DNA of 64,000 nt, from the sequence record PV805638.1; one strand, given 5' to 3'. Below, one piece after another: positions 49,594 through 56,338 of the stretch. The first letter of the stretch is position 1, and each line of letters starts with the position of its first letter. The DNA comes from a phage. Below the pieces are notes generated by a model. That model was not told the DNA's origin, ran no database searches, and saw nothing but the letters and a program-made list of their open reading frames with translations. The translations under genes were made by a program, and so were the position numbers.

Positions 49594-51864
49594 TTACAGG
49601 TTCATGCCAAGAGCCGATGCTGGGTCTTGGCTAGGGTCATAGTATTGGGAACTAAGTGAATAAGACGGGTCTTGCTGAGCAGCTAAATCCCGTTCTGGTA
49701 TAGAGTTCACGTTAGTCAAAGTATTATATCCAACAGCTGCAGATATGTTGGGGGTAGTTTCCCCTTCTTTAATAGGTGTTGTCAATGCCTTAGTTATTTG
49801 AAGGTTCTGGTTTCCTTGGGATTGTGCTTTTTGTTTTTCCATATCACGAGCATGTTTAGTACCAGATTCCTGTTCCAGATAATCCAGGTCTTTAAGGTCA
49901 CCACTAGAAGCAGCCTCTTTAGCTTTAGCCATATTGAGTGCAATCTTACTTTGCAACTCTTCATTCTCAAGCTGTGCTTTCTGAATTGCCAATTGCTTAA
50001 GCTGTTCTTCCATAGGGTCTGGTTGTGGTTGCCAAGTACGTAACTCATGAGCCAGGTCAGGCATACGTTTAAGCTCTGCAATCTTAGCTACGAGGGATAA
50101 TGTAATAGTCTGGTCAACCGTATTACCCAATGTTTGAACCATGAAGCTCAAGTCCTGGGATTTCTGGTTATCAATTTCAGCAGTGTTAATATCAACCTCA
50201 ATGTCGAAGTTACCTTTAAGATCTTCACGGTTAATCTCTACATACTGCTCGTTAGTAATACGTACTACTTCCTTCTCAGATAAGAACACAGCATTCATTG
50301 CACAAATCTTAGTACCAATGTCTGCCATACCCTTAGCTAATCGACGAAGGATTGCCATCTCACGCTTGGATGCTGCATCAAGTGCACCACGAATACCAGC
50401 AGCCACATCTCCGTATGCTGAACCAGTTACACCACCGGAGAATGCTTTAACACCAGTTAATGATTCAGCTTCCTGGTTTTGCATCTGGGTCATTATTATT
50501 GCCGACTGAGGTAACTCAGGGAACTTATGTTCCATAATGGCTTGACTAGGATTACCCTGCATTGGGTTGTATTCATAGTCTTGCCCATCGTCATAACGAC
50601 GTCGGTTTAGTGTATCCAACATCCCTTTAGGATAACCACGCTGACCATTTGCACTTCGACCTAACAGGTCAATCATCCCACGCATAGTTGCACCAAGAAT
50701 TGCTTGGTTATCCCCTAATAGTTCAGCATCAGCTTCACCAAAGAGTTCACGTTTACGAGGCATGTAAGGAACAACTACTAAAGGTAATTTGCCGTCAGGG
50801 AATGGGTTCCTCTCCATACGAATAAGGGTAGAACCAATCCAGGTAGCAACAATAGGTTCCAGAGAACCATCATCATTGATGTCGTAGAATCCCCAGTATT
50901 CATAAGCAACAACTTTCTTACGTAGTGCATCCTTAAACTGAAAGTCACTAGGGGTTTTACTTTCATGGTCTGGGTCAGTCATTGGGCTAGAACTTTCCCA
51001 GTCAATCTTATCTAAATTGTGGTAACGGTCTTTGTTCTTCATGAGGTCTGCTTTGCATGTCTCAAATGAGATAACTGCATACAGAGCCTTATCCAAATCA
51101 CCGTTACAGCTTGGGTCAATAACTACGTTATTGGGGTTAAGCATTTCAACGGTAGGTCTGTTAACCAGTGCCTTCTCTACCTCTACTTCAGTAACCCCTG
51201 TCTGGATTGCATACGTAGCTTCTCCAGTTTCATTGAAGTAGTTAACAGCTTCCTTAATATCTTCAGGCATTGTTTCATCATACTCACGAGGATTCTCTGC
51301 CTGAAGCTGTAAAGCCTGTTGAAGAACATCTGCCTGTTCTTGGTTCTCAATTGGATACAACTGGAAGACTGGTGTTTCTGTTTTAATCTTAACGGTCTTA
51401 CGTTCCCAACCAATACGAGCAATACCAGTACCGTCATCTACGACACTGTGTACGTAATCATCTACCAGTTTTACTTTATTAAGCTGTGTACGGAATTGGT
51501 AGTTAAGAACTAATTCATTCTGACGTGCAGCTAACTCATCTTCAAAAGTAACCGGGGTTACTTTAAAGAGTTTGTTAGATGAGAGGAATGGCTCGGATAA
51601 TGGAGCATATCGCCACTCTGCCTGACGGCGAACCAGTCTGGGCTGGACTTGTGATCGTCCTTTAACCTTTGGGGGTTTAGCTTTACCTTTAACTTCCATC
51701 AGGTCATTCCACTCACGAATCTGTGCCATAATCGCATCGTGAGCAGGTTTAGCTGATTCCAAATCACCCTTCAGTAATTGGATACTTGGTTCCTTCTTCC
51801 AGTCCGTTAACTTCTCTGATTGAGCCGGGTCTGGTAAAGGCTTAAAAGTGTCTTGGTGTTCCAT
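49594..51864 (-). CDS. Portal protein candidate (N4 gp59-like)
   Basis: 756 aa, size and position as for the N4 portal. Confidence 0.55.
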
Positions 51865-51872
51865 AGTTAATC

Positions 51873-52373
51873 CTATTCAAAAAGTTTACGGTCAGCCTGA
51901 ATTTGCTTACCCAACTCAATTAGTTGGTTGTCACGGAGTCTAACAGTTGCCCGGAGTTCTTCAACCAAACGTCTGCCTTCTTCAAGACTGTTGTCGAGTC
52001 TGGCTGCATGGCTTGCAAGACTTCTGCACTCAAGGGTTCCGGCTTCGGCTTGACGTTTATATACCGATGCTCGTCTTTCAGACTGTTGCATCCGGCTGTC
52101 GTAATCACTGCTAACGCGAGCAAGCTCGCTTGCGTAATTACTCTCAGCCGTCTGCAACCGGGAAGTAAGTAACCCGACTTCATAACTATGGTTTCTTTGG
52201 AGAGCATTGTATTTGTCCTGTAGTTTTTGTGTTGCCTTCTGGTCTTCAACCTTTTGAGCATCCCATCTCTTTTGGACAGTAGACTGTCCATTGGAATTGC
52301 CCCAAAAGTAAATGGTGGCCCCGAGGACCACCACCAGAAGATAAGGCCAACCTTTAGAGATTAGCATCTTCAT
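51873..52373 (-). CDS. i-spanin (Rz-like)
   Basis: N-terminal TM '[16 protein letters not shown]' followed by a coiled-coil-like periplasmic domain. Start placed at an internal Met to limit overlap with the endolysin. Confidence 0.5.
51920..52183 (-). CDS. o-spanin (Rz1-like lipoprotein) embedded in the i-spanin gene
   Basis: '[32 protein letters not shown]' signal peptide with lipobox, then a Pro-rich tail; alternate frame inside the Rz-like gene. Confidence 0.55.
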   Translation of the reverse strand: MKSGYLLPGCRRLRVITQASLLALAVITTAGCNSLKDEHRYINVKPKPEPLSAEVLQAMQPDSTTVLKKADVWLKNSGQLLDSVTTN

Positions 52374-52989
52374 TACATGCCTCCAGTGGTACATTACCGA
52401 TTCGGTTAGCTACCCAACCATACGTAAAGTCTGGCATGTTCAATGAGGTGTAGTGGTTCAATTGTTTAGCATCAAGCAACTTAATCATTACCTGACATGC
52501 TGCAACTTTGCCTCGTTTTTTCTGTAATGCTTTATATGCATTAACAGTACCTGCACCGACTTTACCATCAACTTGTATTTTAGGGTAGTCTTTGCCATCA
52601 CGGGACATTTCATTAAGGGATTGCTGCAACCACTTAGCTGGTCTGGTTACACCGGTATTAACACCAGCATCAACCAGTTTGTGTGTTACAGCAGGAGATA
52701 TATCAGCGAAGGCTACGAAGTTAGGCTTAATAACGTAGTCATCAATGTATATCTCAGCAGCCATCTCTTTAGATAAACCCTTCATGGAACCATCCCAACC
52801 ATACTCAGTAGCCAGAACTTCTTTATGAGACTTAGCTACTGAATGAGTAATACCATGATTAGTTTCCCCGCCTGGGTCACGAGGATTGTTTACGTATCCC
52901 CCTTCCATATAGAACACTGCCCCCAGAATAGCAGCGATAACTCCTCCCACCGCACCCCCTTTTGCAGCAAGTTTCTGTTTAGCTTTCAT
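52354..52989 (-). CDS. Endolysin: GH108-like N-acetylmuramidase with N-terminal SAR-like segment
   Basis: 'EGGYVNNPRDPGGETNHGIT' GH108 signature; Gly/Ala-rich weakly hydrophobic N-terminus 'GGAVGGVIAAILGAVFY'. Confidence 0.65.
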   Translation of the reverse strand: MKAKQKLAAKGGAVGGVIAAILGAVFYMEGGYVNNPRDPGGETNHGITHSVAKSHKEVLATEYGWDGSMKGLSKEMAAEIYIDDYVIKPNFVAFADISPAVTHKLVDAGVNTGVTRPAKWLQQSLNEMSRDGKDYPKIQVDGKVGAGTVNAYKALQKKRGKVAACQVMIKLLDAKQLNHYTSLNMPDFTYGWVANRIGNVPLEACNEDANL

Positions 52990-53239
52990 GAGAATCTTCC
53001 TTTGGATGGAATCGTATTAGTCTACCTACAATGTTTAAGGCAAATAGTGCGATTGTAATACTGGAACCATGTGGAATATCTTCAAGGATGTGACGTGGTA
53101 GTCCCGTCAGCATTGGTTGGATAATATCTACTGTAGAAAACAGAATTACTCCAAATGCACTAATCTGAACAGATGCCCACTTCCAGGACCTCTTCCAGTT
53201 AGGAACTAGCCCTATTTTTCTTTTTAGCTTGCGAACCAT
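52979..53239 (-). CDS. Putative holin/pinholin (two TM helices)
   Basis: Two hydrophobic helices ('VQISAFGVILFSTVDII', 'ITIALFALNIVGRLI'); start placed at internal 'MVRKLKRK'. Confidence 0.35.
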   Translation of the reverse strand: MVRKLKRKIGLVPNWKRSWKWASVQISAFGVILFSTVDIIQPMLTGLPRHILEDIPHGSSITIALFALNIVGRLIRFHPKEDSHES

Positions 53240-53556
53240 GCGAATATCTCCCGTCTTGCAGCAGCCAATACACCAATGATTGCACCTGCCCCAGCCCATA
53301 CCCACTTGCCAAAAATTCCAGCACCTGCAACCTTATGTTTAATGGTGATGAACTCTTCGATGGTAGGTTCAGACTTAGTGATGCTCTCCTCTACCCGTTT
53401 AAGTCGGGTACTAAGGTCACCCATAGACTCACTTAGTTTTTTAATAGACTCTTCCATTTTCTCCCTATCCCTCGATTCACGAGTTTGGTTTTCGAAAATG
53501 TTTCTTAGTCTCTCTTCGAGTCTGGCTAGAGTTACGTTATCTGGTTCATTTCCCAT
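53224..53556 (-). CDS. Membrane-anchored coiled-coil protein (possible lysis regulator)
   Basis: Charged coiled-coil N-terminus and C-terminal TM 'GIFGKWVWAGAGAIIGVLAA'. Confidence 0.3.
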   Translation of the reverse strand: MGNEPDNVTLARLEERLRNIFENQTRESRDREKMEESIKKLSESMGDLSTRLKRVEESITKSEPTIEEFITIKHKVAGAGIFGKWVWAGAGAIIGVLAAARREIFAWFAS

Positions 53557-53803
53557 AGGGATTTTCTCAGGTTAGTTAAGTCGTAATTGACTAAAACAGT
53601 CTACCTAATGACTTGTTTTTGGTACAACAAAAACCCACCCCCCGCAACCTAGTTGGGCTGGTTAAAGCCTGAAATATGGAACAGCAGTCACCAAAACAAC
53701 AAAGACCATACTTAGGGTTGAGACAATCATATGGGTGGCTATATGCGTATAATATTTTTAGGGAGCAAGTGTATACTTGCTCCCCAGAGTTATCTCAGAG
53801 TCA

Positions 53804-56338
53804 TCAGAACACATAATCCAGTTGCGTAAGCTGCTTCAACTGAATCTGCACGGTACTATCCAGAGTTACTGCCGGAACAGTTAAGCCAGAAACACCGATT
53901 GCAAAGTCCGCAATGAACCCGGTAGTAGGATTCTTTACTATATCCGCCCCAGTACCCCCAGAACCTGTACTTGCAAACTGAGTCTGCTTAGTACCATAAG
54001 CATTCCCTGTACCCGCAATAACTAGTTGCCATACACCCCTGCCGAGCGTACCTGGAATACTCAAGCTACCTGAACCAGCAGCCCGAAATATCTTGGTATT
54101 CTCATAGAACATACACTCTTGCAACGTGCAGGTACTTCTCTGCCCGGTACTCACAACCTGATTACCCCGGAAGCTAAAGTTAGTCTGGTCATTCAGAACG
54201 AAGTCACACAGCTTAGCCTCTTGCACCCGCACGTTCATATCCAGAGTGTTGGCATGAGCAATCAGGGACTTAGGAATACCTTGCACCTTATATCCAACAG
54301 CACGATAACTTAAATCCAGAGAGTTGTACTGCTTCACGGAGTTGCCAATCAGCTTAACCGTCTGTCCCCGATATACCTGGGATGCGCTAGCCCCAGCGTT
54401 AACTATAATAGCCTCGGTTGTGTTATTGACAGTCTGACACTTAAGTACAACCGTATTGTGACTGATATCGATATCCTGGTACACCTGGTATGAGCTATCC
54501 CCTGCTCCGGTCGATATAGCTACCCCATCAAAAGCTCTAAGCTCGCAATAGTTGTTGTGAATCTTAACAAAGGGGTTCGGATACGTCGCTGCCGTAGCCT
54601 CCCCGCCGCCACCTACATCGATGCTGCGAGTATACTTTCCACCTATAAGCAGTCCGGAAGTAGCACTAGCAGGAATATCTCTGGAGCGCACATAGTTGTT
54701 GCTAACGATGAGGTTGTATGGTTCGTAGTTTGGATTCCAACCTGCCCCACATTTAGCATATATACCAACTACGCCGTGCTCAAGGCACATGTTCTCCGTG
54801 ATGATTACCTGCCCACCACCGTGGAAGTCAATACACTTACGACGACAGTTCTTAATCTGGTTTTTAGCAACAACTACGTTCCTGATTCTTCGGTTACGCG
54901 CATGCGAAATACCGTACCCAGGGTCGTAGCTATCGTTCAGAACATCATCACCATAAGGGTGTCCAATATTCTGGATATCGTTGGACTCATAGTTTAGTCT
55001 GTAGCCGGACAGTACGTAGATACCTGCACTGTAGCAATCCTTGATGGTACAGCCCATAACCATAACACCGTCAGGTACATCCGTGTCATTCGTATAATCC
55101 GTGCTGCCGTAGGTAGTCGCAATGTTACGGATGCCGATACCAATGCCACCAAAGTTAAAACCGGATACGTGCGAGTTCAGAATAAGGATGCCACGGCAGC
55201 CGCGTTGCACCTTGATACCATTAGCCCAGCTTCCGATGTAACCGCCAAGGAAAGTCCCCCAGGTACTGCGCCACCCATCCAACTGATTACCCGCGTCATC
55301 ATAGTTAGGGAACTGTCCAGCTACACCAGCATAAGCACCAGACGTGTACGCACTGGAGTCAACGGAGTTATTAGGACCTGTAAACAGTGCTGTATCGTAT
55401 CCGAAACGAGCCTCACCTTTCTCTGCATAACCAGTAGGCACATCTATAGCAGGGAACTTGTTAGGGCCACGCACAGTCAGCGATACAGTCACGTTCCGGC
55501 AATTTACAAGGGCAAGTCCGTCCAGCCCATGCGTATTCACAATTATAGTGCCGTTGGAGATACGAATACCTTCCTTATTTACCAGTGCCAGACACGGACT
55601 GTAGTTACGTGTACCGTCGCTGAAGTCAGGCTCAGTAGGGTACGTAGAAGCCAATGCAGGATTTTTTCGAACTAAATATGTCTTTCCTCCTAAATCAATA
55701 TCTCCAGTGGCGGCGTCGAAACATGCCTGCACTGCCAACGTATCGTCGGCAACGCCATCGCCAACCGCCCCCCATCCACGTGGATCGCCATTATCACGCC
55801 AGCGAGCCATTTGTAGTTCGGGGTATTTTGTTGCACCTTCAGGGTCTGAAATCTGTCCTCGTAGCACCACATCCCCAACACTCACCCAAGCACCCAGACC
55901 AACACCACCAGAAGTTTTAGGGGTTGAGTCGGCAGGAACTACTTTAGGCAATACACCATCCCATCGATACTTACCATCGGTAAAGACAACCAGTTCATTC
56001 TTGGTATTAACTGTTACACCAGTATCAAATGAACCAGGTAAGGTTACATACTCTTCACGAGCAACAGCAAGTGCACCTAAGTCCACACTACCAGCAGAGT
56101 GTACTAATACCCCAGATGGACTAAGACTTGCAGCAGTAACCCCTGAACCAATGTCAGCAGGTAAGGAATAAGCACGCTGTGTCTCCTTGTCGTAGATGAC
56201 TTTGTAACCACTTAGTACAGCACCCACTGAGAAGTAAACAACCTCAGATTGCTTAACTCCAAAGTGACGGGCTACTGCTTGTTTATTGGTTAAGATTCCA
56301 GTTGAACCTTTACCACCTTGAGAGAACATTTCGTTCAT
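53804..56338 (-). CDS. Tailspike with pectate-lyase-like beta-helix depolymerase domain
   Basis: 'GWGAVGDGVADDTLAVQACFDAA' motif typical of pectate-lyase-3 type tailspikes; 844 aa. Confidence 0.6.
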   Translation of the reverse strand: MNEMFSQGGKGSTGILTNKQAVARHFGVKQSEVVYFSVGAVLSGYKVIYDKETQRAYSLPADIGSGVTAASLSPSGVLVHSAGSVDLGALAVAREEYVTLPGSFDTGVTVNTKNELVVFTDGKYRWDGVLPKVVPADSTPKTSGGVGLGAWVSVGDVVLRGQISDPEGATKYPELQMARWRDNGDPRGWGAVGDGVADDTLAVQACFDAATGDIDLGGKTYLVRKNPALASTYPTEPDFSDGTRNYSPCLALVNKEGIRISNGTIIVNTHGLDGLALVNCRNVTVSLTVRGPNKFPAIDVPTGYAEKGEARFGYDTALFTGPNNSVDSSAYTSGAYAGVAGQFPNYDDAGNQLDGWRSTWGTFLGGYIGSWANGIKVQRGCRGILILNSHVSGFNFGGIGIGIRNIATTYGSTDYTNDTDVPDGVMVMGCTIKDCYSAGIYVLSGYRLNYESNDIQNIGHPYGDDVLNDSYDPGYGISHARNRRIRNVVVAKNQIKNCRRKCIDFHGGGQVIITENMCLEHGVVGIYAKCGAGWNPNYEPYNLIVSNNYVRSRDIPASATSGLLIGGKYTRSIDVGGGGEATAATYPNPFVKIHNNYCELRAFDGVAISTGAGDSSYQVYQDIDISHNTVVLKCQTVNNTTEAIIVNAGASASQVYRGQTVKLIGNSVKQYNSLDLSYRAVGYKVQGIPKSLIAHANTLDMNVRVQEAKLCDFVLNDQTNFSFRGNQVVSTGQRSTCTLQECMFYENTKIFRAAGSGSLSIPGTLGRGVWQLVIAGTGNAYGTKQTQFASTGSGGTGADIVKNPTTGFIADFAIGVSGLTVPAVTLDSTVQIQLKQLTQLDYVF

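Follow-up and report, generated by a model that had tools for sequence, protein, structure and literature searches.

Five small genes packed together in a phage related to N4 raise the question of how the roles in host lysis are divided among their products, and in particular which of two neighbouring membrane proteins would release a muramidase that appears to be tethered by its own N-terminus. The window, by which we mean the whole stretch of phage DNA analysed (64,000 nucleotides of sequence record PV805638.1), has at 51873-53556 on the minus strand five densely packed ORFs, with a tailspike gene on one side and a portal gene on the other (Table 1). An initial annotation had placed a lysis cassette here, and five minus-strand ORFs are indeed found at these limits.

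Layout of the cassette and its relatives

The locus is very probably the five-gene cassette by which a G7C-like E. coli phage related to N4 (Gamaleyavirus, Schitoviridae) lyses its host, and there is little doubt about its gene-for-gene orthology to gp63-gp62-gp61-gp60/gp60a of N4. The cassette is already known, being annotated in close relatives, and its N4 counterpart has been examined by experiment. Its DNA is 95-97% identical across the full length to G7C, ST4, PhAPEC5/7 and Bas96 (megablast), and the records of G7C, Bas96 and Mimir124 carry the identical five genes annotated at matching positions. Identities to the N4 proteins are 60% for the gp63-like protein, 59% for the gp62-like protein, 70% for the endolysin (gp61), 58% for the i-spanin (gp60) and 80% for the mature o-spanin (gp60a). 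Stojkovic and Rothman-Denes reportedly worked, in 2007, on the N4 lysis system and its N-acetylmuramidase gp61. The roles described in N4 are pinholin for gp63, lysis regulator for gp62, SAR N-acetylmuramidase for gp61 and embedded spanins for gp60/gp60a (Awuah et al., bioRxiv 10.1101/2025.11.12.688109). Gene order, domains, motifs, membrane segments, lipobox and the conservation of both spanin frames are established here; the membrane segments were judged by hydropathy and composition, which are crude measures.

Table 1. Cassette features and their positions in the window
Feature	Position	Strand	Basis
Leader preceding the first gene of the cassette (GTAGACTGTTT.AGTCAATTACGACTTAACTAACCTGAGAAA)	53557..53633	-	Conserved among Gamaleyaviruses
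gp63-like protein, 110 aa	53224..53556	-	ORF; PHROG 5211 match, E 3e-49; N4 gp63 orthologue
Receiver domain counterpart, codons 64-76 of gp63-like protein (PTIEEFITIKHKV)	53329..53367	-	Alignment to N4
C-terminal TMD of gp63-like protein (AGAGIFGKWVWAGAGAIIGVLAAA)	53257..53328	-	Hydropathy peak, residues 81-99
gp62-like protein, 86 aa	52979..53239	-	Pfam DUF7940; PHROG 1356 'holin', E 3e-31
Endolysin, N-acetylmuramidase GH108 + PG_binding_3, 211 aa	52354..52989	-	Pfam, PHROG 315, PDB relatives
SAR-like segment, endolysin residues 7-28 (LAAKGGAVGGVIAAILGAVFYM)	52906..52971	-	Kyte-Doolittle hydropathy peak 1.79
EGGY motif, endolysin residues 29-32	52894..52905	-	Read from sequence; presumed catalytic Glu
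i-spanin (Rz-like), 166 aa	51873..52373	-	PHROG 6197 'Rz-like spanin', E 4e-77
o-spanin (Rz1-like lipoprotein), 87 aa, mature part 56 aa	51920..52183	-	+1 frame inside i-spanin gene
Lipobox T-T-A-G-C	52088..52102	-	Codons read; Cys32 in the 87-aa form

G7C (vB_EcoP_G7C, HQ259105; gp63, gp62, gp61, gp60, gp60') has the same genes, order, overlaps and tailspike-portal position. Its DNA is 96.8% identical to that of the window and its proteins 96.5-98.7%, with point differences only inside the cassette; homology stops about 80 nt upstream, and beyond this lies a different tailspike gene. Unlike N4, G7C is reported to be without lysis inhibition, and its regulation may therefore differ from that of N4. 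With about 60% identity, the cassette is a natural variant of the dissected N4 system from a lineage reportedly without lysis inhibition, and is potentially useful for comparative experiments with N4, while posing no new biological question by itself. Its main value is for annotation: homologues of gp63 should be named pinholin, replacing 'hypothetical' or 'tape-measure protein', and those of gp62 lysis regulator in place of plain 'holin', and the embedded o-spanin should be recorded in this phage group.

Megablast similarity to G7C extends to window position 53633, and the leader that ends there may hold a late promoter and a weak Shine-Dalgarno sequence. On the minus strand upstream of the cassette, scanning for promoters gave no site with a sigma-70 consensus. 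Three scanned 'terminators' were rejected, as they lie inside coding sequence and are at chance level, and a match to the Rfam family Clostridiales-1 (22 bits, gathering score 48) is sub-threshold and was taken as chance. The plus strand also has antisense ORFs (for example 53276-53575, 99 aa, and 51924-52172, 82 aa); these run opposite to well-supported genes and are annotated in none of the three records of G7C, Bas96 and Mimir124.

The endolysin and its N-terminal segment

The endolysin ORF overlaps the gp62-like gene by 11 nt. Both Pfam domains score above their cut-offs, Glyco_hydro_108 at residues 24-113 (69.9 bits, cut-off 21.2) and PG_binding_3 at residues 117-196 (33.1 bits, cut-off 24.6), and in an alignment of 10 orthologues E29, G30 and G31 of the EGGY motif are invariant and Y32 nearly so, which bears out the earlier identification of a GH108 muramidase. 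The relatives in the PDB, 6V3Z (Sen1395; E 7e-27) and 6V40 (E 4e-20), are Salmonella T10SS muramidases which, like the endolysin, have a GH108-type catalytic domain and PG_binding_3. The match to them begins at endolysin residue 20-24 and therefore leaves the SAR-like segment uncovered. The Salmonella proteins are described as bacterial enzymes used in protein export, not lysis (PMC13284979), and N4 gp61 itself is credited with muramidase activity on peptidoglycan, as cited in bioRxiv 10.1101/2025.11.12.688109.

The presumed catalytic Glu directly follows a membrane segment that is weakly hydrophobic and uncharged, with a basic flank (K2, K4, K6, K10). Residues 7-27 (LAAKGGAVGGVIAAILGAVFY) are 52% Gly+Ala (52-58% for the SAR-like segment), against 14-18% in the TMD of the i-spanin. 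A segment of like kind is present in all 10 aligned orthologues; relative to N4, that of the window has a 3-residue insertion. A Hessa-type sum of insertion energies (approximate scale, no position weighting) made all TMDs of the cassette marginal, giving no distinction between the SAR segment and a stable TMD, and only Gly/Ala composition was used further. The Gly/Ala-rich, lysine-flanked composition and its conservation in kind among 10 phages, together with the 70%-identical N4 gp61, which behaves as a SAR endolysin (bioRxiv 10.1101/2025.11.12.688109), support the SAR-type N-terminus proposed in the initial annotation, with a segment that would be retained uncleaved.

The same N-terminus could be read as an ordinary cleavable Sec signal peptide, in which case the enzyme would be free in the periplasm and otherwise restrained. 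It has the layout of an n-region and h-region, a basic MKAKQK..K followed by 18 uncharged residues, and the simple -3/-1 rule permits signal-peptidase cleavage near residues 21-24, for example after LGA and before V. We nevertheless regard cleavage as highly improbable, given that the invariant EGGY motif begins only 1-2 residues past the hydrophobic stretch, which leaves no room for a c-region, and given the high Gly+Ala content of the segment. Moreover, purified N4 gp61 is membrane-associated, and a single charge inserted in its SAR segment (G12E) causes premature, rapid lysis, which fits restraint by tethering (bioRxiv 10.1101/2025.11.12.688109).

Two membrane proteins and the predicted pinholin

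From the SAR-type endolysin it had been concluded that a pinholin partner is implied. Such a partner is supported by orthology; its strict necessity is not, as P1 Lyz, another SAR endolysin, functions with a canonical holin. For N4 gp61, too, the implication is no logical necessity, because this enzyme, which functions with a canonical holin or a pinholin and causes slow lysis without any holin, also functions with lambda S105 (bioRxiv 10.1101/2025.11.12.688109). Two candidates are encoded upstream, where overlapping membrane proteins had been noted: the gp63-like and gp62-like ORFs do overlap, by 16 nt.

The gp63-like protein has a soluble N-terminal part, helical or coiled-coil, and one Gly/Ala-rich C-terminal TMD at about residues 77-100. 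Over residues 64-110 it matches N4 gp63 at 43 of 47 positions. This span begins with the segment that corresponds to the N4 'Receiver domain', in which rapid-lysis mutations cluster (T65, T71; bioRxiv 10.1101/2025.11.12.688109). T65 and T71 are kept in the window, and P64, I66, F69, I72, K73 and V76 are invariant in the 10 phages aligned. In the TMD, which is 47-52% Gly+Ala, the same holds for G78, A79, G80, G83, K84 and W87. N4 and the window share the Receiver motif PTIEEFITIKHK with both threonines and the gp63 C-terminal TMD, as they do EGGY and the SAR-like segment of the endolysin, the two gp62 TMDs and a 56-aa mature lipoprotein. They differ at gp63 position 17, where the window has Leu and N4 Met, so the gp63-like protein is without the alternative start of N4. 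In experiments N4 gp63 causes irreversible killing after CCCP, can stand in for S21, the pinholin of phage 21, but not for S105, the lambda holin, and makes small lethal holes that free SAR endolysins and not soluble ones (bioRxiv 10.1101/2025.11.12.688109). By orthology, the most supported prediction is that the pinholin partner is this single-TMD protein and not the two-TMD gp62-like protein. On how gp62 and gp63 share the work the sole source is one preprint (bioRxiv 10.1101/2025.11.12.688109).

The gp62-like protein scores 53.9 bits against DUF7940 (Pfam cut-off 27) and has two hydropathy peaks, corresponding to TMDs at about residues 21-40 and 59-75, with basic termini and an N-in/C-in arrangement. 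Its ATG at 53239 is preceded by a GGGAG Shine-Dalgarno sequence, and the frame is open upstream as far as GTG 53305 (108 aa form). We rejected a dual start at this GTG, which is an out-of-frame reading of the codons for the invariant G-K-W of gp63; since stop codons close the extension in Moo19, Pokken and RiverRider, the 86-aa form was taken as the conserved product.

Could the gp62-like protein be the true holin, with the gp63-like protein an antiholin, a regulator or a structural protein? Its match to the PHROG 1356 'holin' family, the label 'holin' in most GenBank records, and a topology resembling that of class II holins would agree with this, as would the label 'tape-measure protein' that several records give to gp63 homologues. 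N4 gp62, moreover, kills after CCCP and slowly releases SAR and soluble endolysins (bioRxiv 10.1101/2025.11.12.688109). However, plasmid-driven lysis is unaltered when N4 gp62 is deleted, N4 gp63 by itself complements the pinholin S21, and deletion of N4 gp63 selects compensating mutations in the SAR segment of the endolysin (bioRxiv 10.1101/2025.11.12.688109). In the Pseudomonas phage Meara a gp63-like gene abuts the endolysin gene directly, without a gp62 homologue, and at 110 aa the gp63-like protein is too small for a tape measure. The exchange of roles therefore seems improbable to us, and the gp62-like protein is predicted to be a lysis regulator or auxiliary holin alongside a gp63-like pinholin.

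If the N4 experiments on SAR behaviour, on the formation of pinholes and on the spanins hold here, lysis by this cassette might proceed as follows. In the late phase of infection one minus-strand message would serve for translation of all five overlapping genes, and the muramidase would be exported via Sec, its Gly/Ala-rich N-terminal segment tethering it, inactive, in the inner membrane with the EGGY Glu at the membrane surface. The gp63-like protein, anchored by its C-terminal TMD, would accumulate and then trigger, producing small holes and a collapse of the membrane potential, with the two-TMD gp62-like protein acting as an accessory regulator of slow holin-like activity. The SAR segment would then exit the bilayer, and the freed enzyme would degrade peptidoglycan around the whole cell. 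The i-spanin (inner-membrane anchor, periplasmic helices) and the o-spanin (outer-membrane lipoprotein), presumably already joined across the periplasm, would disrupt the outer membrane after loss of the peptidoglycan mesh.

Phage 21 S21/R21 and P1 Lyz are unrelated in sequence to the window's proteins: R21 and P1 Lyz are T4-lysozyme-like, not GH108, and S21 has two TMDs, whereas a gp63-type protein has one, at the C-terminus. Their mechanism is probably of like kind, a membrane-tethered endolysin being freed on depolarisation, and N4 gp61 can replace R21 and N4 gp63 can replace S21 (bioRxiv 10.1101/2025.11.12.688109). The Receiver segment and TMD are nearly unchanged from N4 (43/47) although G7C-type phages are reportedly without lysis inhibition and Met17 is lost. 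We speculate, while thinking it unlikely, that the role of the Receiver segment lies in intrinsic timing or gating, in a new class of single-TMD, C-terminally anchored pinholins, and not in the sensing of superinfection. If this were true, the differences between the N4 and G7C-like cassettes could pinpoint the origin of lysis inhibition.

The nested spanin genes

The longest i-spanin ORF begins at 52394 with an ATG that has no Shine-Dalgarno sequence. The most likely start is ATG 52373, seven codons downstream: a GGAGG precedes it by 7 nt, and the PHROG 6197 profile aligns from the first residue encoded there (profile positions 1-166 against residues 8-173 of the longest ORF). The protein has a TMD near its N-terminus, at residues 8-25 (window 52299-52352), and a periplasmic domain that is probably mainly helical and contains its single Cys, C116.

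The o-spanin ORF lies wholly within 51873-52373 with a frame offset of 1, confirming that it is fully embedded in an alternate frame of the i-spanin gene. Reading of its codons likewise confirms the lipobox 'TTAGC', which fits the pattern [ILMFTVA][^REKD][GAS]C and has its Cys codon at 52090-52088. Residue +2 is Asn, with no Asp at this position, and outer-membrane sorting is therefore implied. The start codon is uncertain: ATG 52183 is absent from two close relatives, which retain an alternative ATG at 52207 that would give 95 aa. The signal region is longer than that of N4 and is without its proximal Met.

An open frame of this kind might be an unexpressed by-product of the amino-acid composition of the i-spanin. 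In a synonymous-codon permutation the +1 stop-free run had a mean of 84 codons and was as long as observed in 85 of 5000 replicates (1.7%; p about 0.017), and the o-spanin ATGs have a weak Shine-Dalgarno sequence or none. ORF length is thus weak evidence, and the case for the o-spanin was therefore built on conservation. A scan of IMG/VR with the i-spanin gave close relatives only, and distant ones were found by tblastn against GenBank phages; in all, 21 related loci were compared for the embedded frame, nine of them from more distant phages in several genera of the Schitoviridae. The initial annotation had staked the embedded ORF on its conservation in relatives, and all 21 loci have a basic n-region, a hydrophobic core, a lipobox Cys at one aligned position and a mature part of 54-63 aa, even where i-spanin identity falls to about 40%. 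The sequence of the signal peptide diverges among them, its character being retained, and a comparison of the mature part with eight more distant phages gave identities of 54-84%. Within the i-spanin gene, conservation is highest over the doubly coded stretch, with 54-86% identity; residues 1-63 reach about 30%. A BLASTP comparison with the o-spanin annotated in Pokken gave E 8e-27, and the embedded ORF is annotated as o-spanin in G7C, Bas96, Pokken and Meara. Finally, N4 gp60 and gp60a together complement lambda Rz/Rz1 (bioRxiv 10.1101/2025.11.12.688109). With hardly any probability left to it, the by-product reading appears effectively refuted by conservation, and the embedded frame is best read as an o-spanin gene.

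Lambda Rz/Rz1 has the same architecture, its o-spanin gene being nested completely within the i-spanin gene in the +1 frame; intermolecular disulfides are known there. In the window the i-spanin has its lone Cys and the mature o-spanin has none besides the lipidated one; the intermolecular disulfide pattern of lambda is therefore impossible here. At the level of PHROG profiles the i-spanin bears a weak likeness to other Rz-like families (PHROG 1327, E 5e-5).

Organization of the lysis cassette

The five minus-strand genes form an entirely ordinary lysis cassette from a phage lineage that is already known. The cassette is real and was read correctly; it is annotated in close relatives, and its N4 counterpart has been characterized experimentally. 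Over 2.4 kb the region shares 95-97% identity with Escherichia phage G7C, ST4, PhAPEC5/7, Bas96 and other Gamaleyaviruses (Schitoviridae, N4-like). In G7C gp60, the embedded gp60', the gp61 N-acetylmuramidase, the putative holin gp62 and gp63 are annotated at equivalent positions, and the o-spanin is annotated in Bas96 and Mimir124 as well. The cassette proteins share 96.5-98.7% identity with those of G7C; with N4 gp60-gp63 the figure is 58-70%, rising to 80% for the mature o-spanin. The close-set ORFs lie between a tailspike gene (56338..53804) and the portal gene (51864..49594), and their outer ends are identical to the limits in the initial annotation, 51873-53556. Neighbouring genes share 16, 11 and 20 nt in turn, and 8 nt separate the i-spanin stop from the portal ATG.

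Coordinates of the cassette genes in the window
Gene	Position	Strand	Product
gp63-like	53556..53224	minus	110 aa
gp62-like	53239..52979	minus	86 aa
Endolysin	52989..52354	minus	211 aa
i-spanin	52373..51873	minus	166 aa
o-spanin, +1 frame of i-spanin gene	52183..51920	minus	87 aa

The start codons of the gp62-like and endolysin genes are preceded by GGGAG and AAGGAAG, and that of the i-spanin by GGAGG 7 nt upstream. Although the i-spanin frame is open up to an ATG at 52394, there is no Shine-Dalgarno there, and since the alignment with PHROG 6197 ('Rz-like spanin', E 4e-77) begins at residue 8 of this longest ORF, 52373 is the likely start. For the o-spanin the choice of start codon is ambiguous. 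No clear Shine-Dalgarno precedes ATG 52183, and two close relatives have Thr in its place; ATG 52207, behind a weak AGGA, is kept where ATG 52183 is lost.

The embedded o-spanin

In the product of the o-spanin ORF, a basic n-region and a hydrophobic core precede the lipobox TTAG/C, and the 56-aa mature part starts CN; the lipobox of the initial annotation is therefore real. The length of the ORF alone is weak evidence of a gene. When the synonymous codons of the i-spanin were permuted, the stop-free +1 run had a mean of 84 codons, and the observed 146 was reached by 1.7% of permutations. By conservation, we regard the reality of the embedded gene as settled. A signal peptide, a lipobox Cys and a mature part of 54-63 aa are encoded in the +1 frame of 21/21 related loci, which include N4, Moo19 and phages of Klebsiella, Achromobacter, Burkholderia, Stenotrophomonas, Erwinia, Pseudomonas and Xanthomonas. 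The initial annotation had named a lack of conservation in relatives as grounds for rejecting the gene, and this objection fails because the +1-frame lipoprotein is conserved in every one of these loci. The mature protein has a conserved motif (beginning NVKP..PLS....), and the signal peptide varies in sequence between phages while keeping its character, as predicted by selection on the embedded frame. The doubly coded stretch is the best-conserved part of the i-spanin gene: identity to the compared phages is 54-86% over i-spanin residues 95-151 and 54-84% over the mature o-spanin, against ~30% over residues 1-63 of the i-spanin, where only the much closer Moo19 reaches 71%.

A second lipobox-like string, LLPG/C (SLPG/C in G7C; window 52154-52168, minus), occupies residues 6-10 of the 87-aa form, in the signal n-region. 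It is kept across Gamaleyaviruses and absent from N4, and is probably unused because it lies too near either start for a normal signal peptide to precede it. Cys116 of the i-spanin (52026-52028, minus) is its single periplasmic Cys, conserved in 8/9 aligned phages, and the mature o-spanin has no Cys beyond the lipidated one, so any disulfide would be limited to i-spanin homodimers, unlike in lambda Rz/Rz1. An Rfam match to Clostridiales-1 sRNA within the spanin genes (52084-52159, minus; E 0.066, with 22.2 bits where the gathering score is 48) is almost certainly due to chance.

The endolysin and its predicted pinholin partner

The endolysin has above-threshold Pfam hits to Glyco_hydro_108 and PG_binding_3 and matches solved GH108-type muramidases (6V3Z, E 7e-27; 6V40, E 4e-20), in agreement with its initial designation. 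Its N-terminus runs from MKAKQKLAAK through 18 uncharged residues (GGAVGGVIAAILGAVFYM) to EGGY. The Gly/Ala-rich segment noted initially is borne out, with 52-58% Gly+Ala versus 14-18% in the i-spanin TMD, in a layout common to 10/10 aligned orthologues with E-G-G invariant. This segment could instead be cleaved by signal peptidase, but the EGGY immediately past the hydrophobic stretch argues against cleavage, as do the data on N4 gp61. In the Ramsey laboratory's dissection of the orthologous cassette, plasmid-borne N4 gp60-gp63 lysed E. coli in ~25 minutes, gp61 complemented endolysin defects with a canonical holin and with a pinholin, its slow lysis without any holin was SAR behaviour, and single charge insertions in its SAR segment, such as G12E, gave rapid lysis (bioRxiv 10.1101/2025.11.12.688109).

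The initial annotation took a SAR endolysin to imply a pinholin. The implication does not hold by itself, because N4 gp61 also functions with lambda S105, but orthology supports a pinholin partner here. On that basis the partner is the gp63-like protein with its single TMD and not the one with two TMDs, to which databases give the label 'holin'. N4 gp63 complemented the phage 21 pinholin and not lambda S105 and killed irreversibly after CCCP, and is therefore a pinholin; its rapid-lysis mutations (T65I, T71A) cluster in a 'Receiver' segment (bioRxiv 10.1101/2025.11.12.688109). The gp63-like protein matches PHROG 5211, has a charged, coiled-coil-like N-terminal two-thirds and one Gly/Ala-rich C-terminal TMD, and keeps T65 and T71 in its Receiver motif PTIEEFITIKHK. 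It is identical to N4 gp63 at 43/47 positions over residues 64-110 and at 23/63 in the N-terminal part. The gp62-like protein, with matches to Pfam DUF7940 and PHROG 1356 'holin', has basic termini flanking two hydropathy peaks. N4 gp62 is dispensable with slow holin-like activity, hence its authors' name 'lysis regulator', and N4 gp60/gp60a complemented lambda Rz/Rz1 (bioRxiv 10.1101/2025.11.12.688109). The absence of a gp62 homologue from the N4-like Pseudomonas phage Meara, where the gp63-like gene (annotated 'holin') directly adjoins the endolysin gene (locus 1566-2491), fits this dispensability.

From the retained N4 features, such as the Receiver residues and the conserved gp63 C-terminal part, we infer the same lysis pathway, with sequence features read in the window and functional steps taken from N4. 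The muramidase would be exported via Sec and held inactive by its membrane tether until the gp63-like pinholin depolarised the membrane and released it; peptidoglycan would then be degraded and the spanin complex would disrupt the outer membrane. G7C is reportedly without lysis inhibition, so regulation may differ from that in N4.

The gp62-like ORF is open for 22 codons upstream of its ATG, to GTG 53305 (53240-53305, minus), overlapping gp63 TMD codons. The resulting 108-aa form is probably incidental, because its GTG/ATG start sits, out of frame, on the codons of the invariant G-K-W of gp63 and the extension contains stops in Moo19, Pokken and RiverRider. A dual start of gp62 is nevertheless possible in Enquatrovirinae, as alternative starts are mentioned for N4 gp62 (bioRxiv 10.1101/2025.11.12.688109).

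The label 'tail length tape-measure protein' occurs among features under the cassette match in GenBank records such as OM982646 (ST4), MH358458 (phi G17), OP870143 (F22) and OY979416 (K57alpha1.2), presumably on the 110-aa gp63 homologue, which is explicitly so labelled in Moo19, HN03 and Gutmeister. One GenBank record labels the cassette region RIIA/RIIB lysis inhibitor. These labels are likely propagated misannotations.

The region upstream of the cassette

A sequence scan upstream of the cassette found no consensus sigma-70 promoter, which would fit the late promoters of N4, which are weak and activator-dependent. Just downstream of the tailspike stop codon is an intergenic perfect 10-bp hairpin, GGGAGCAAGT-GTAT-ACTTGCTCCC (53761-53784), and near 53625-53660 (minus) a weaker G-rich stem is followed by a U-run; at this place G7C carries a classical GCCC...GGGC-T6 terminator. 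Compared with shuffled sequence, the intergenic region folds better (z = -2.3), and between the tailspike and lysis genes the two structures may serve as a terminator or an RNA-stability element.

The tailspike (minus strand, 844 aa; Pfam Tail_spike_N and Beta_helix) differs from that of G7C. Its best matches are in Salmonella phage P46FS4 (158-kb genome; 79% aa identity, full length) and Enterobacter phages (up to 88%, residues 97-843), and nucleotide identity stops at 53633 against G7C and 53708 against ST4. These data suggest that recombination brought in a different receptor-binding module immediately upstream of the conserved lysis genes.
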